From positions 86,263 to 150,262 of the forward strand of contig CAJOGD010000001.1 of the NCBI GenBank assembly GCA_905233975.1: a stretch of DNA of 64,000 bases. Direction: 5' to 3'. Made by a program: the position numbers and the translations under genes. This document shows positions 56,939-59,570 of this stretch, piece after piece. The notes under the pieces were generated by a model that saw only the letters and a program-made list of their open reading frames with translations, ran no database searches and was not told the DNA's origin. The stretch comes from an uncultured Alphaproteobacteria bacterium (GTDB lineage: Bacteria > Pseudomonadota > Alphaproteobacteria > Rs-D84). Within the stretch, counting starts at the first letter, position 1; each line of letters opens with the position of its first letter.

Positions 56939-57015
56939 CGCGGGGTAGAGCAGTCCGGTAGCTCGTCAGGCTCATAACCTGAAGGTCGGTGGTCCAAATC
57001 CATCCCCCGCAACCA
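56939..57015 (+). tRNA. tRNA-Met (anticodon CAT), initiator type (C1xA72 mismatch)
   Basis: CGCGGGGTAGAGCAGTCCGGTAGCTC..anticodon loop CTCATAA..GGTGGTCCAAATCCATCCCCCGCAACCA. The 5-prime C opposite A72 is the initiator hallmark. Confidence 0.85.
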
Positions 57016-57027
57016 GTTTAAATGAAA

Positions 57028-57053
57028 AATACACCGCAATGGTGTATTTTTTG
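57028..57053 (+). terminator. rho-independent terminator after tRNA-fMet
   Basis: AATACACC-GCAA-TGGTGTATT followed by TTTTT. Confidence 0.6.
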
Positions 57054-57196
57054 TTTAAATCTTGTTGTGGTCTGTGGTTTGTGACCCGCAACGCAGTTGC
57101 CGGTTCAAAATTTGTATATAAGAACGAACGATAGTGAAGTTCGAATAACTACAAATTTGCGCGCAGCCGGCACATAATGTGCCGCGCGAGCGAAAT

Positions 57197-57211
57197 CATC
57201 CCCCGCAACCA
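57197..57211 (+). repeat. direct repeat of the tRNA-fMet 3-prime end (CATCCCCCGCAACCA), copy 2
   Basis: Identical 15-mer to 57001..57015. Confidence 0.8.
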
Positions 57212-57330
57212 AAGTTTCAAAACTTGCCCTCTGGGGCAAGTTTTTATTTGTTTTACAATACATACATGAGGTTCGAAAGTTAACTTTTTGAAATAGGCAA
57301 ATTTTCGCCACTTTTTGAACTGTACAGAAT

Positions 57331-57984
57331 TTAGTATTTGTTATTATAATAACCATTTTTTAATGCATCTATACATATTTCTTGAGCTTCAGCAAGCTGT
57401 TTTGAAATTTTTGAATAACTTCTGGGATTATTCTTATCTCCCGTTATTTTTGCTATGTTTTTTCCTTGTTCATCTTGAATAATACAATCTGTAGTTCTAT
57501 AAATTTTTTGACATTCTTGTGAACCAGCATAATCATAAGTAAAGAACCCTGTCGTATAAGTATTAGACGATCCATATGCAGATGCATAATTACCATAACT
57601 ATATGCATTTGCAGTACCATAAGTATGACTTCCGGTTGGAACGTATCTAGTATTATAAATAGGACATTTTGTTGAATACGGATAGTTTGTTATTTTTATT
57701 ACTAAATTATAATTTTTTCCTGTTTTGTTACATATATCAACATCTTCTTTTGTATAATTTGAGCAAACATCCAGGTCAGATTTTAATTCTTTAACCTCTA
57801 AACTATTACCACCATCTACTTTGGACATATATATTTCTTCGCTATTTTGTTCAAGAATTAAGATAGTATCTTTATAATAAGTATTAGCAAAATTTATAGG
57901 TGTTTCTGTAGTATATTGTTCCATATGATAAGTACTAGTACACCCACACAAAAATAATAAAAACAAAGTAAATAATCTTTTCAT
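57331..57984 (-). CDS. lipoprotein, AT-rich, island cargo
   Basis: MKRLFTLFLLFLCGCTST lipobox. Tyr/Asn-rich. Confidence 0.5.
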   Translation of the reverse strand: MKRLFTLFLLFLCGCTSTYHMEQYTTETPINFANTYYKDTILILEQNSEEIYMSKVDGGNSLEVKELKSDLDVCSNYTKEDVDICNKTGKNYNLVIKITNYPYSTKCPIYNTRYVPTGSHTYGTANAYSYGNYASAYGSSNTYTTGFFTYDYAGSQECQKIYRTTDCIIQDEQGKNIAKITGDKNNPRSYSKISKQLAEAQEICIDALKNGYYNNKY

Positions 57985-58052
57985 ATGCTCACCATTTTTA
58001 ACATTATCATTATATCTCAAATGTATTATTTTTCAATATAATTAAGTTCTAC

Positions 58053-59159
58053 TTATGCATCTACTATATCTATAAGTTCTTGAAACTGATACATGGCAGC
58101 ACGTCGACCGGATGATTTTCTTCTTTCTTTTAAAATACCTGCTTTTATCAACTTTTCTAAAATATTTCTTGATGTAGCTCTATTTGGGATGCCACACTCA
58201 TGAATAAACTGCGTGGATGTAAAAATTGGTCTTTTAAACAAGGCGTCTAACGCACTCACTGAAAATCGAGATTTTGTTATTTCTTGAAATATTGATTTGT
58301 TTTCCTCATATAATTCCAAAATTTTTTTAGCTTTTTCGTAATTTTTGTGTGATTGTTCTTTTACAGCATTTAAAAAGAATAACACCCACGAATTCCAATC
58401 ATTTTTATTTTCTATATATTTAAATGCCTGTTCATATTCATCTCTATGCTTATTGAGATATTCGCTAAGATAAAAAACAGGTTTAATCAATATACTCTTT
58501 TGATATAAAAATAATGGTATTAACATCCGACCTAAACGTCCATTCCCATCATTAAAAGGATGTATCATCTCAAATTGTGCATGCAAAACAGCCAACTGAA
58601 CAAGTGGGGTATCTTCAGTACTATTTACATAATCCATCAAATCTGTCATACAAGGATTAACGGATTCCGGTACAGGTGGAATAAAAGTCATTTCTTCAAC
58701 CGGTCTTCCTGGTATTCCTATATAATTTTGGGTTATCCTAAATTCACCAGGATTCTTATCTTTTCCTCTTACATCTCTCATTAAAATTCCATGTAAAGAC
58801 CTAATCAATGATGCAGAAATTTTATGACCTTTGCTAACCGAGTTTTCTCCTATTATTAGGGCCATACGATAATTTAAAACTTCCTTTATATCATCCTTTT
58901 TGCGTTGAGACAAATCTGTATTTTCATCAGCATCATACTCTAATACGTCCGTTAACGTGGCTTGTGTACCTTCTATTTCAGAAGAAACGCGAGCTTCATT
59001 ACTTGTTAAAGGCGATAATAAAACATTCGGATTTGGTATAGCTAACAATAACCCATTGTAAGTAGCCAAACCCCTTTCAGCTAGTGCTAAATACGGTGCC
59101 AACAATTTCCAATCTAAATTGTTTATAGGTAATAAAGATGGACTATACGGAGATAACAT
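58053..59159 (-). CDS. fic: Fic/Doc family protein (AMPylation-type toxin/effector)
   Basis: Canonical Fic motif HPFNDGNGRLGRML. 368 aa with a C-terminal winged-helix-like tail. Confidence 0.85.
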   Translation of the reverse strand: MLSPYSPSLLPINNLDWKLLAPYLALAERGLATYNGLLLAIPNPNVLLSPLTSNEARVSSEIEGTQATLTDVLEYDADENTDLSQRKKDDIKEVLNYRMALIIGENSVSKGHKISASLIRSLHGILMRDVRGKDKNPGEFRITQNYIGIPGRPVEEMTFIPPVPESVNPCMTDLMDYVNSTEDTPLVQLAVLHAQFEMIHPFNDGNGRLGRMLIPLFLYQKSILIKPVFYLSEYLNKHRDEYEQAFKYIENKNDWNSWVLFFLNAVKEQSHKNYEKAKKILELYEENKSIFQEITKSRFSVSALDALFKRPIFTSTQFIHECGIPNRATSRNILEKLIKAGILKERRKSSGRRAAMYQFQELIDIVDA

Positions 59160-59169
59160 ACTTTACATA

Positions 59170-59295
59170 TTAAACACTTTTTGTGTAAAATCAAGTTAAA
59201 TTTATTTTACACAAACACTTTTGTGTAAAACCCAATATTATCAAACTATTTTGTGTAAAACATCGATTAATTTATTTTACACAAACACTTTTGTT
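59170..59295. promoter_or_regulatory. iterated palindromic operator upstream of fic: five copies of TTTTGTGTAAAA / TTTTACACAAA, including a perfect 26-bp palindrome
   Basis: aaacacTTTTGTGTAAAA, TTTTACACAAAcacTTTTGTGTAAAA, TTTTGTGTAAAA and TTTTACACAAAcacttttgt, all within 130 bp of the fic start codon. Confidence 0.5.
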
Positions 59296-59505
59296 TGCTT
59301 TTGAGCTATATTTTTGTAGTGTTATTGTTAAACCATCTAGGTAAAAATCAATAATTTGATTACGTTAGACTTCTTGCCCAGATGGGCATAAATTTATCAA
59401 TAAAAATGTTTAATATATATTCGGTAAACCTAATTTGTCTTTAAAAAGTCGTATTTCATGTCCAAATGCTATTAAATCCGTATAGTTATTGGCTCGAGAA
59501 CTGCA

Positions 59506-59520
59506 CATCCCCCGCAACCA
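59506..59520 (+). repeat. direct repeat of the tRNA-fMet 3-prime end, copy 3 (distal att-like end)
   Basis: CATCCCCCGCAACCA, identical to the tRNA end. Confidence 0.8.
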
Positions 59521-59540
59521 GTTAAATAATAAAAATAACC

Positions 59541-59570
59541 CCAAATGGGTTATTTTTATTATTTAATTTG
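59541..59570. terminator. bidirectional hairpin terminator (AACCCAAATGGGTT) flanked by T/A runs
   Basis: aataaccccaaatgggttatttttatt. Probably the ancestral terminator displaced by the island insertions. Confidence 0.5.

Follow-up and report, generated by a model that had tools for sequence, protein, structure and literature searches.

Within the 64,000-nucleotide stretch of contig CAJOGD010000001.1 analysed here (the window), the gene of a tRNA-fMet (CAT) is followed by a segment, 57016-60138, which is probably (rough probability 0.6) a tRNA-anchored array of non-autonomous mobile units. The array contains gene cassettes framed by conserved arms and a module devoid of open reading frames (ORFs), named S (Table 1). 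Cassette arrays of the same family occur at at least 22 assembled loci of gut Melainabacteria, nearly all at tRNA-fMet and one group at tRNA-Gln. The cassettes are probably inserted and excised by site-specific recombination at CAACCA, which forms the final six bases of the window tRNA-fMet and the common boundary or core of the array units, the enzyme being supplied in trans. The anatomy of the units, their exact boundaries, their polymorphism, their reshuffling and the two tRNA anchors were all observed directly.

The last 15 bases of tRNA-fMet, CATCCCCCGCAACCA, are found exactly at 57001-57015, 57197-57211 and 59506-59520, as the first-pass annotation of this DNA had reported. When up to two mismatches are allowed, the window contains four matches versus 0.29 expected, a number reached by none of 100 shuffled sequences. 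A decayed fourth copy of the tRNA end, AATCCCCCCCAGCTA, lies at 59690-59704. The three exact copies delimit two islets, one of 181 bp (57016-57196) and one of 2294 bp (57212-59505), in agreement with the sizes first given; the latter is AT-rich as described, its G+C content being 25-34% versus about 40% in the flanking DNA. Each of the three exact copies has a hairpin and then a T run directly on its 3' side, and copies 1 and 3 have 55 nt in common at 73% identity because look-alike hairpins come after both. The terminator-like hairpin located immediately outside the third copy (59522-59566) had been considered as a displaced terminator; it is indeed present, but it is the first hairpin of a second S module.

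The tRNA-Met(CAT) at 56939-57015 carries the C1xA72 initiator signature and is preceded on its 5' side by a consensus promoter, TTGACA-16-TATAAT, at 56898-56925. Its T-loop (56992-56998) reads TCCAAAT, position 55 being a C, both here and at locus L005 (comparative loci are designated by L and a number), while all related genomes have the usual TTCAAAT. This could be the legacy of a tRNA 3' part swapped for an element-borne copy. At the array's distal end, the ASCH cassette of the window has lost its right arm, and in L033 and L024 ASCH forms a free cassette that possesses the two arms. The predicted promoter of the window ASCH gene, at 59714-59741, looks like a decayed left arm.

Comparison with a close strain (L005/L006, MurF 98% identical) indicates that the region is polymorphic, since different genes are found at the same place. 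This strain can be aligned with the window on both sides of a differing segment, as far as 57016 and then from 59748 onwards, and the strain-variable stretch (57017-59747) reaches past the third repeat. It had been predicted that, in related strains, the tRNA would be directly followed by the sequence found from 59521 onwards in the window. L005/L006 do lack both islets and the site is polymorphic, but the tRNA directly abuts two other cassettes, carrying AP_endonuc_2 and Peptidase_M55 genes. The 196-bp unit 57016-57211 is a precise indel relative to L005: the tRNA is followed by GAGTTTCAAAAC.. in L005, and copy 2 by AAGTTTCAAAAC.. in the window. Furthermore, the units of L005 share their start and end sequences with the 2.3-kb unit of the window, which was the first sign of a cassette family. 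The description as tandem units anchored on the tRNA 3' end and polymorphic between close strains is therefore one that the comparison upholds. The exact window sequence is present in gut metagenome assemblies, and MurF homologues are labelled Gastranaerophilales/Melainabacteria in the source records. Exact look-ups of the Fic, ASCH and 607-aa proteins of the window retrieved the same strain only. MurF relatives about 62% identical (P0009, P0004) lie in regions that are not syntenic with the window and are uninformative, and a MurF scan of genome contigs gave as sole match an unrelated Pedobacter locus.

Scanning 28 bases of the shared left end against JGI metagenome contigs led to 17 loci, 12 of which include the tRNA-fMet upstream of the left-end motif, and further loci were retrieved from ENA assemblies by a profile of the right-arm peptide. 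More than 40 cassettes are known from these loci, as units of 0.6-2.3 kb carrying one or two ORFs on either strand; unit counts come from motif searches, which miss decayed arms. L039 displays at least seven units from tRNA-fMet to ychF. All unit boundaries lie immediately 3' of CAACCA (30 junctions inspected). The initiator tRNA had been regarded as an unusual integration target, but tRNA-fMet is the usual anchor in this clade, and it also hosts a classical integrase island in L046. The arrays at tRNA-Gln(CTG), in L042 (8400-11460), L043 (suspect as an assembly, with inverted duplicate flanks) and L045, have the same microprotein and the same GTTCGAAAGTT arm, and their right-arm ends resemble the 3' end of tRNA-Gln (..GCAGCCCAACCA). 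The 3' ends of the tRNA-fMet and tRNA-Gln(CTG) anchors have only ..CAACCA in common. The 3' half of the tRNA used as a DNA pattern gave no match in viral or JGI metagenome contigs, nor did left-arm and junction sequences in viral contigs, phage records or plasmid records.

Identical or related cassettes are found in different contexts. For example, a cassette encoding 98- and 154-aa proteins heads the arrays of L026 and L030 and stands third in that of L035, with 99% identity, the L035 array corresponding to the L030 array with two extra cassettes on the tRNA-proximal side. New cassettes thus appear at the anchor-proximal end. The M55 cassettes of L005 and L027 are 96% identical and have different neighbours, and the NADAR cassette opens the arrays of L022 and L035 and ends that of L039. 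The Fic/lipoprotein cassette of the window is found again, 86% identical over 2.3 kb, in L021, which belongs to another species with a different tRNA-fMet sequence; there, it lies directly after tRNA-fMet and its distal flank differs from that of the window. A shorter version is present in L036. The exchange extends to both anchors, the methyltransferase cassettes of a tRNA-fMet array (L038) and of a tRNA-Gln(CTG) array (L042) being 78% identical over 1107 bp.

Every gene cassette is surrounded by the same conserved arms, about 110 bp on the left and about 70 bp on the right. Alignment of 40 unique left-arm copies reveals that GTTCGAAAGTT and CTTTTGAAC are invariant. The first hairpin is always perfect in spite of compensatory changes (ACTTGCCC/GGGCAAGT, AACCGTCC/GGGCGGTT, ACCCGCCG/GGCGGGT). 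The block CAATAYYTACAAAAAGTTCGAAAGTT includes 12 invariant positions and is followed by about 28 variable bases, and the arm closes with CTTTTGAAC, the inverted partner of AGTTCGAAAGT. The variable part appears to depend on the orientation of the cargo: with minus-strand cargo, it is a predicted terminator (a GTGGCG..CGCCAC hairpin and a run of Ts on the cargo strand), and with plus-strand cargo, a predicted promoter (TTGACA-N18-TG-N-TATAAT). The right arm of the family reads ..ATTTCCAAYAATTCGGCTCGRGAACTGCACACACTGCACAACCA. The third repeat of the window (59506-59520) is the end of an unusual hybrid arm, with the family sequence up to GAACTGCACA and then the host tRNA end. The 15-nt repeat, initially taken as the mark that delimits the islets, is not a hallmark of the family: CAACCA is the whole overlap with the host tRNA in 24 of 31 right arms, a few arms reach 8-10 nt and that of the window reaches 15 nt.

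The right arm encodes a microprotein of 22-45 aa (MCSSRAELLEIGREI..KDKLGL) whose gene appears to be under purifying selection. The minus-strand translation reads (M)CSSRAELLEIGREIxxxKDKLGL, followed by a stop after 22-45 codons, and the start codon, GTG or ATG in 21 of 23 arms, is located within the tRNA-like terminal block. Among 20 distinct arms, codons that depart from the consensus leave the amino acid unchanged in 46% of cases when read in this frame, versus about 10% in four other frames. The microprotein frame is free of stops in all 20 arms, whereas the other two frames of the same strand contain stops in 19. The antisense frame that shares third codon positions scores similarly, yet it is closed by stop codons in type-b arms; a forward-strand frame in the right arm was rejected, type-b arms carrying stop codons there. 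These type-b arms, including that of the window, contain an in-frame insertion of 12 nt that keeps the SSRA start and the FKDKLGL end. The ORF is retained in both orientations of the cargo, facing it or facing away, and so is not a leader peptide of the cargo. A profile built with N-terminally extended microprotein rows and searched against 5.8 billion proteins retrieved 51 clusters, all of 30-91 aa, none of which is part of a longer protein or of a recombinase.

The 181-bp islet had been described as holding only hairpins and terminators. It is indeed devoid of ORFs and rich in hairpins, but it is not a stray sequence: with its terminal tRNA-end copy, it forms the S module, whose homologues (169-196 bp) are conserved in at least 12 loci. 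They are found after the tRNA in L024, L025/L038, L027, L028, L029, L032, L033, L036, L039, L046 and L047, and after a cassette in L026, L031, L046, L047 and the window, where copy C (59521-59704) is recognized with E = 6e-14. S is not present in L005, hence a polymorphism within the species. The T1 hairpin of S is followed by an imperfect inverted copy of the acceptor/T-arm 3' strand of the tRNA (reverse-strand matches). A hairpin TGAACCAC..GTGGTTCA, in which the T-arm recurs as the right half, then precedes a segment of about 90 nt that contains additional hairpins and the motif CGCAG, and S ends with GCGAAAT and 15-20 nt identical to the 3' end of the tRNA of the same genome. This end block tracks the host through four tRNA variants (CATCCCCC, CATCTCCC, CACTCTCC and CATTCCCC).

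RNAalifold finds compensatory changes in 13 of the 28 predicted pairs of S. As single-stranded DNA, copy A is predicted to form a closed four-way junction (z = -4.1), in which GTTGTGG pairs with CCGCAAC and TGGTTT with AAATCA, and the fold of copy C has z = -4.9. Single-strand folds of S from L036 and L028 are no better than those of shuffled sequences (z ~ -1.5), so that the closing stem rests mainly on the window copy and L033. S may serve as a secondary landing site, or it may be a structured RNA, a folded attachment-site mimic or the relic of an integration at the T-loop.

A comparable arrangement exists at a second tRNA-Met of the window, tRNA-Met2 (CAT; 37756-37830, minus strand), which is followed by two GC-rich islets (region 37385-37830). 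Copies of its own 3' end, of 19 nt (37592-37610) and 15 nt (37423-37437), lie 146 and about 320 nt downstream, each beside a look-alike terminator. These islets share the S layout built on their own tRNA (inverted end, half T-arm, CGCAG motif and 3' block). No such islets are found at the tRNA-Gln and tRNA-Thr genes of the window, and Rfam at permissive thresholds detects nothing in either islet of tRNA-fMet or in those of tRNA-Met2.

Two other non-coding sequences were encountered. L027 (2262-2480), L038 (from 3077) and L047 (from 6780) contain a second, ORF-less type of unit, distinct from S, which is about 220 bp long, starts with CGAATTTTCTAAAAATACCGCG.. and ends in a tRNA 3' block. In the window, a GC-rich non-coding stretch (39000-39090), downstream of an ORF at 37882-38988, is 75% identical over 91 nt to 4377-4467, 35 kb away; the pair may belong to a dispersed GC-rich repeat in an AT-rich genome.

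Table 1. Coordinates of the array and of its constituents in the window.
Feature	Position	Strand	Remarks
tRNA-fMet (CAT), anchor of the array	56939..57015	+	77 nt; ARAGORN and Rfam
Order of units from the tRNA outward	57016-60138		copy A of S, the SoFic/lipoprotein cassette, copy C of S (decayed), the ASCH cassette (fixed)
S module, copy A	57016..57211	+	196 bp, no ORF
T1 hairpin of copy A	57016-57060		
Imperfect inverted tRNA 3' end of copy A	~57062-57085		
Exact tRNA 3' end copy of copy A	57197-57211		15 nt, preceded by three GC-rich hairpins
Left arm of the cassette	57212..57320	+	
Bidirectional terminator hairpin of the left arm	57219-57244		
Invariant motif of the left arm	57271-57281		GTTCGAAAGTT
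Second hairpin of the left arm	57296-57309		GGCAAATTTTCGCC
Inverted motif of the left arm	57310-57320		ACTTTTTGAAC
Cargo gene 1, putative lipoprotein	57331..57984	-	217 aa; signal peptide MKRLFTLFLLFLCGC; no Pfam match
Cargo gene 2, SoFic-type Fic protein	58053..59159	-	368 aa; Fic_N, Fic and SoFic-like C-terminal domain
Two 46-nt repeats upstream of fic	59167..59294		each with inverted TTTTGTGTAAAA/TTTTACACAAA motifs
Microprotein ORF of the right arm	59410..59508	-	32 aa, MCSSRANNYTDLIAFGHEIRLFKDKLGLPNIY; ATG within the third copy of the tRNA end
Right arm of the cassette	59450..59520	+	ends with ..TTGGCTCGAGAACTGCACA + TCCCCCGCAACCA
S module, copy C (L036/L028 subtype)	59521..59704	+	hairpin 59522-59566, GC-rich hairpins, decayed 3' block AATCCCCCCCAGCTA at 59690-59704
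ASCH gene, terminal fixed cassette	59740..60138	+	murF begins 12 nt past the stop codon

The cargo of the cassettes is diverse and accessory. Pfam identifies Fic, NADAR, MFS, histidine phosphatase, APH-like kinase, SAM methyltransferase, three GNATs, hexapeptide acetyltransferase, MYG1, EamA, HD, ASCH, an AP_endonuc_2 TIM barrel and peptidase M55, to which several lipoproteins and small membrane proteins should be added; it finds no recombinase, phage or conjugation gene in the cassettes. In the window, the first-pass annotation had recognized a lipoprotein and a Fic toxin. The 217-aa putative lipoprotein, whose gene also occurs in the homologous cassettes of L021 and L036, and the Fic protein (Fic_N and Fic above the Pfam threshold, SoFic-like_C weak) are both retained, but "toxin" is too strong a term. 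The Fic translation contains the inhibitory SSEIEG motif and an intact catalytic HPFNDGNGRLGR, it matches the PADLOC model of SoFic over its full length (1.4e-109) and it matches the solved SoFic structures (PDB 3EQX, 3ZCN; 1e-33). It would therefore be a self-inhibited class II Fic protein of SoFic type, a kind listed as a single-gene defence system, rather than the toxin of a toxin-antitoxin pair. The features of class II, an (S/T)xxxE(G/N) motif, an HxFx(D/E)GNGRxxR core and a C-terminal winged helix, are all present. In comparison with known SoFic, an anti-phage defence protein among the class II Fic AMP-transferases, the motifs are the same, while identity is only about 50% outside the species cluster. 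These best relatives belong to many phyla; together with the low G+C content, this fits a horizontal acquisition. Four copies of TTTTGTGTAAAA/TTTTACACAAA precede fic and are conserved in L021. The segment 59167-59294 is probably the operator and promoter region, and the repeats may be an operator for the winged-helix domain of Fic itself.

Two neighbouring features deserve mention. A VirB3-VirB4 pair followed by a gene for a protein of about 210 aa has L36, SufBD and ychF as neighbours, and its distance to an array never exceeds about 10 kb (L005, 14122-17472; also L009, L039, L046 and L047). In the window, it would lie just past the right end, with DnaG and TopA beyond; this trio could be the remnant of a DNA-transfer system. 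Furthermore, a Bro-N protein of 278 aa (61501-62337, minus strand) matches the PADLOC candidate defence family PDC-S13 at 1e-128. Its locus is also strain-polymorphic, L005-L008 lacking 61590-61992, which leaves an ORF of 76-100 aa.

The enzyme was sought at the arrays and in the cassettes. Searches by phmmer with only four queries (IntI1, XerD, lambda Int and TnpR) gave no match in the ORFs of at least 100 aa of the 64-kb window or of L001-L038, a weak negative that agrees with the earlier statement that no integrase is present. No element with cassette arms around an integrase was found among about 30 loci, the microprotein profile returning only proteins of 30-91 aa. At 2 kb upstream of their tRNA-Gln arrays, L042 and L045 carry a 200-aa resolvase, a small serine recombinase. 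This protein is probably an invertase and unrelated, because L043 is devoid of it and because adhesin genes adjoin it.

L046 (11035-16908; ERZ1767561 NODE_4) contains a 5.8-kb island between tRNA-fMet and the S module. Besides a 381-aa P4-type integrase (Arm-DNA-bind_3 and Phage_integrase) and an HTH_17 protein (excisionase-like), it encodes a DUF3800 protein along with several proteins of unknown nature. An exact repeat of 48 bp, which extends from the anticodon loop to the tRNA 3' end, flanks the island. This island shows that classical integrase-driven insertion happens at tRNA-fMet and displaces the array distally. However, its ends are unlike the cassette arms and its repeat is of 48 bp versus 15-20 nt for S and 6 nt for the cassettes, so that the island is no obvious helper.

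Directly upstream of the tRNA of the window lies an ORF of 607 aa (55068-56891, plus strand) with Pro/Thr/Lys-rich linkers and no Pfam or PADLOC match. Its C-terminal part resembles, by eye, a 510-aa ORF upstream of the tRNA in L037, and L046 has a 504-aa ORF at the same position. This protein is unlikely to be a hidden recombinase, no such ORF preceding the tRNA in most other arrays, among them those of L022, L024, L028, L036 and L039.

Considering all these data, the arrays would consist of cassettes for which we infer circular intermediates, a crossover position and an enzyme acting at a distance. In the cassette circle, an attP-like site would arise from the right arm, CAACCA and the left arm. 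A recombinase, whose gene would lie at another place in the genome or on a helper element, would swap strands within or beside CAACCA; new circles would enter preferentially at the tRNA, older units being pushed distally, and the same recombinase could excise one or several units. The 11-bp motif AGTTCGAAAGT, its inverted partner and the microprotein may act as accessory components in this reaction. The left arm would double as an expression element, providing a terminator for minus-strand cargo and a TTGACA-N18-TATAAT promoter for plus-strand cargo. S modules end in a 15-20-nt copy of the host tRNA 3' end and so would offer a second landing site.

This scheme can be extended, more tentatively, to an integron-independent system of cassette capture, with bipartite arms and a microprotein cofactor, an unlinked recombinase (possibly housekeeping or helper-borne), the CAACCA of tRNA-fMet or tRNA-Gln as target and S as a mimic of the tRNA site. 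S would then be a folded single strand or an RNA mimic, whose 5' inverted tRNA end pairs with the 3' block, in a role analogous to that of attC or of the attP(+) fold of CTX phage.

Several points weigh against site-specific recombination in trans. No recombinase was found for the arrays: Pfam annotation within 10 kb of them reveals no integrase or resolvase, except for the resolvase of L042/L045 and the island of L046. Neither a circular form nor an empty attB has been observed. All comparative loci are metagenome assemblies, in which repeats of about 180 bp can give chimeric joins, and translation of the microprotein is deduced from substitution patterns only. The arms, about 80-95% identical, are long and similar enough for homologous shuffling without any dedicated enzyme, and they are mosaic, the same cargo carrying a type-a arm in L026 and a type-b arm in L030. 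Moreover, identity with the tRNA to the left of CAACCA spans 5-15 nt, which a fixed crossover point alone does not account for.

These last observations are those expected if RecA-dependent homologous recombination between arms, after DNA uptake or conjugation, were sufficient, the arms being portable terminator/promoter repeats and no dedicated recombinase being involved, in the manner of replacement-type flexible islands or of the minimal mobile elements of Neisseria. The high similarity of arms totalling about 180 bp, their mosaicism around the same cargo, the variable length of the tRNA identity tracts, the lack of a recombinase near any array and the constant presence of the VirB3/VirB4 cluster within about 10 kb all fit such shuffling. 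However, it leaves unexplained the exact CAACCA ends of the units, the first unit that always abuts the last base of the tRNA, the second tRNA anchor, the microprotein gene under apparent purifying selection in each cassette and the very origin of the arms around unrelated cargo; it is thus considered unlikely. The decay of ordinary integrative elements, such as prophages, integrative and conjugative or mobilisable elements (ICE/IME) or tycheposon-like islands, which would have entered serially before deletion of the integrase and most genes, is less probable still. Direct repeats of a tRNA 3' end are its classical scar, the integrase island of L046 with its 48-bp repeat has displaced S and the cassettes distally at the same tRNA, and the right-arm end CACACTGCACAACCA agrees by inspection with the tRNA-fMet 3' end of L021, CACACTCCGCAACCA, at 13 of 15 positions. 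In the same way, tycheposon islands grow by serial entry (10.1101/2020.12.28.424599). But more than 40 cassettes have a uniform size of 0.6-2.3 kb and the same two arms, no piece of any integrase, excisionase, replication or phage gene is found in them, and independent losses would not halt at the same two boundaries nor spare the microprotein ORF. Of the two origins initially suggested for the islets, degraded elements or elements mobilised in trans, the uniform arms and the lack of integrase or phage remnants thus go against the former, and trans mobilisation is favoured.

A classical chromosomal integron, or a cluster of attC sites lacking an integron-integrase (CALIN), whose junctions would be attC sites folded as single strands and recombined by IntI, is very improbable. 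The short shuffled cassettes with accessory cargo, gained, lost and reordered, the anchor-proximal arrival of new ones (L035 versus L030) and the hairpins in the junctions recall such a structure. Nevertheless, no intI lies beside any array (Pfam within 10 kb; phmmer as a weak negative), and inspection of 30 junctions and 40 left arms did not reveal attC cores (RYYYAAC/GTTRRRY, crossover between G and TT). The boundaries are of the form CAACCA/N and not G/TTRRRY, two separate perfect hairpins and a coding segment replace a single imperfect palindrome with R''/L''/L'/R' boxes, cargo is carried on both strands with its own promoters and the anchor is a tRNA gene and not attI. Little credence is likewise given to a "peel and paste" element of IS200/IS605 type, comparable to palindrome-associated transposable elements (PATE), which would insert 3' of CAACCA with a subterminal hairpin and a Y1 transposase acting in trans. 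Insertion exactly 3' of a short fixed sequence, mostly without further target duplication, a hairpin that starts 7 nt inside the left end and units that end with the target sequence, allowing tandem insertion, are in line with this mechanism; but the right end has no comparable hairpin, neither TnpA nor TnpB was seen, and the hairpin behaves as a transcription terminator whose sequence varies freely.

The arrays share features with several known systems: by their logic they recall integrons and staphylococcal cassette stacks, by their location tRNA-seeded islands such as those of tycheposons. Like integrons, they comprise short cassettes of one or two genes with accessory, defence or resistance-like cargo, a recombination-site-like repeat at every junction, reshuffling between strains and new units next to the anchor. 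Integrons differ by their linked integrase, their RYYYAAC/GTTRRRY cores and their single imperfect palindrome, while the arrays differ by their tRNA 3' end anchor, their arms of about 180 bp with a microprotein gene, their cargo on both strands and their arm-supplied promoter or terminator.

Tycheposons of Prochlorococcus are islands that target tRNA genes (10.1101/2020.12.28.424599). As in the arrays, tycheposons and P4-type islands use a tRNA site (including Met(CAT)), integrate serially, displace older units distally and leave partial tRNA copies between units. The cis-mobilisable elements (CIMEs) of Streptococcus are integrase-less units with attachment sites at their ends. Direct repeats of the tRNA 3' end flank the units of the window (15 nt, three copies) and S (15-20 nt), as in tRNA-targeting elements, most cassettes sharing 6 nt only. 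Unlike tRNA islands and CIMEs, however, the arrays are made of far smaller and uniform units, with arms that are shared whatever the cargo, mostly 6 bp in common with the tRNA and no integrase of their own nor any remnant of one.

In staphylococci, the staphylococcal cassette chromosome (SCC) and pseudo-SCC elements include recombinase-less cassettes in tandem at the 3' end of rlmH (orfX), with short direct repeats and recombinases acting in trans. SCC units are of 3-60 kb, have no conserved long arms, encode large serine recombinases (Ccr) in some units and have a protein-coding target. The arrays resemble them by the stacking of recombinase-less units at the 3' end of a conserved gene and differ by their units of 0.6-2.3 kb, their conserved long arms and their tRNA target. 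The pdif modules and the integrative mobile elements exploiting Xer recombination (IMEX) are recombinase-less modules that use XerCD at 28-bp dif-like sites with inverted XerC and XerD arms. They too are small modules between recombination sites, moved by a host tyrosine recombinase; by contrast, nothing dif-like was seen in the arrays, whose anchor is a tRNA end.

A literature search that combined Melainabacteria or Gastranaerophilales with integrons, mobile elements or tRNA-linked cassettes was incomplete and found no published description, so that an earlier account is possible. The arrays are best regarded as integrase-less cassettes mobilised in trans at a tRNA attachment site, with about one chance in three that they represent a distinct capture system.

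If recombination is site-specific, the arrays would give a little-known uncultured gut lineage a compact route to gather and exchange accessory, defence and resistance-like genes, such as those for SoFic, the APH-like kinase, the GNAT and hexapeptide acetyltransferases and the MFS and EamA transporters. They would also be an integron-like organisation built from unrelated parts, which raises the questions of the enzyme that recognises CAACCA and the arms and of the role of the conserved 22-45-aa microprotein. The left-arm motif (CTTGCCCNNNGGGGCAAG..GTTCGAAAGTT) and the microprotein profile are markers that retrieve such arrays from metagenomes despite repeat-induced breaks in the assemblies. 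Finally, a recombination system aimed, through self-contained arms of about 180 bp, at the invariant tRNA-gene end could find use as a genetic tool.

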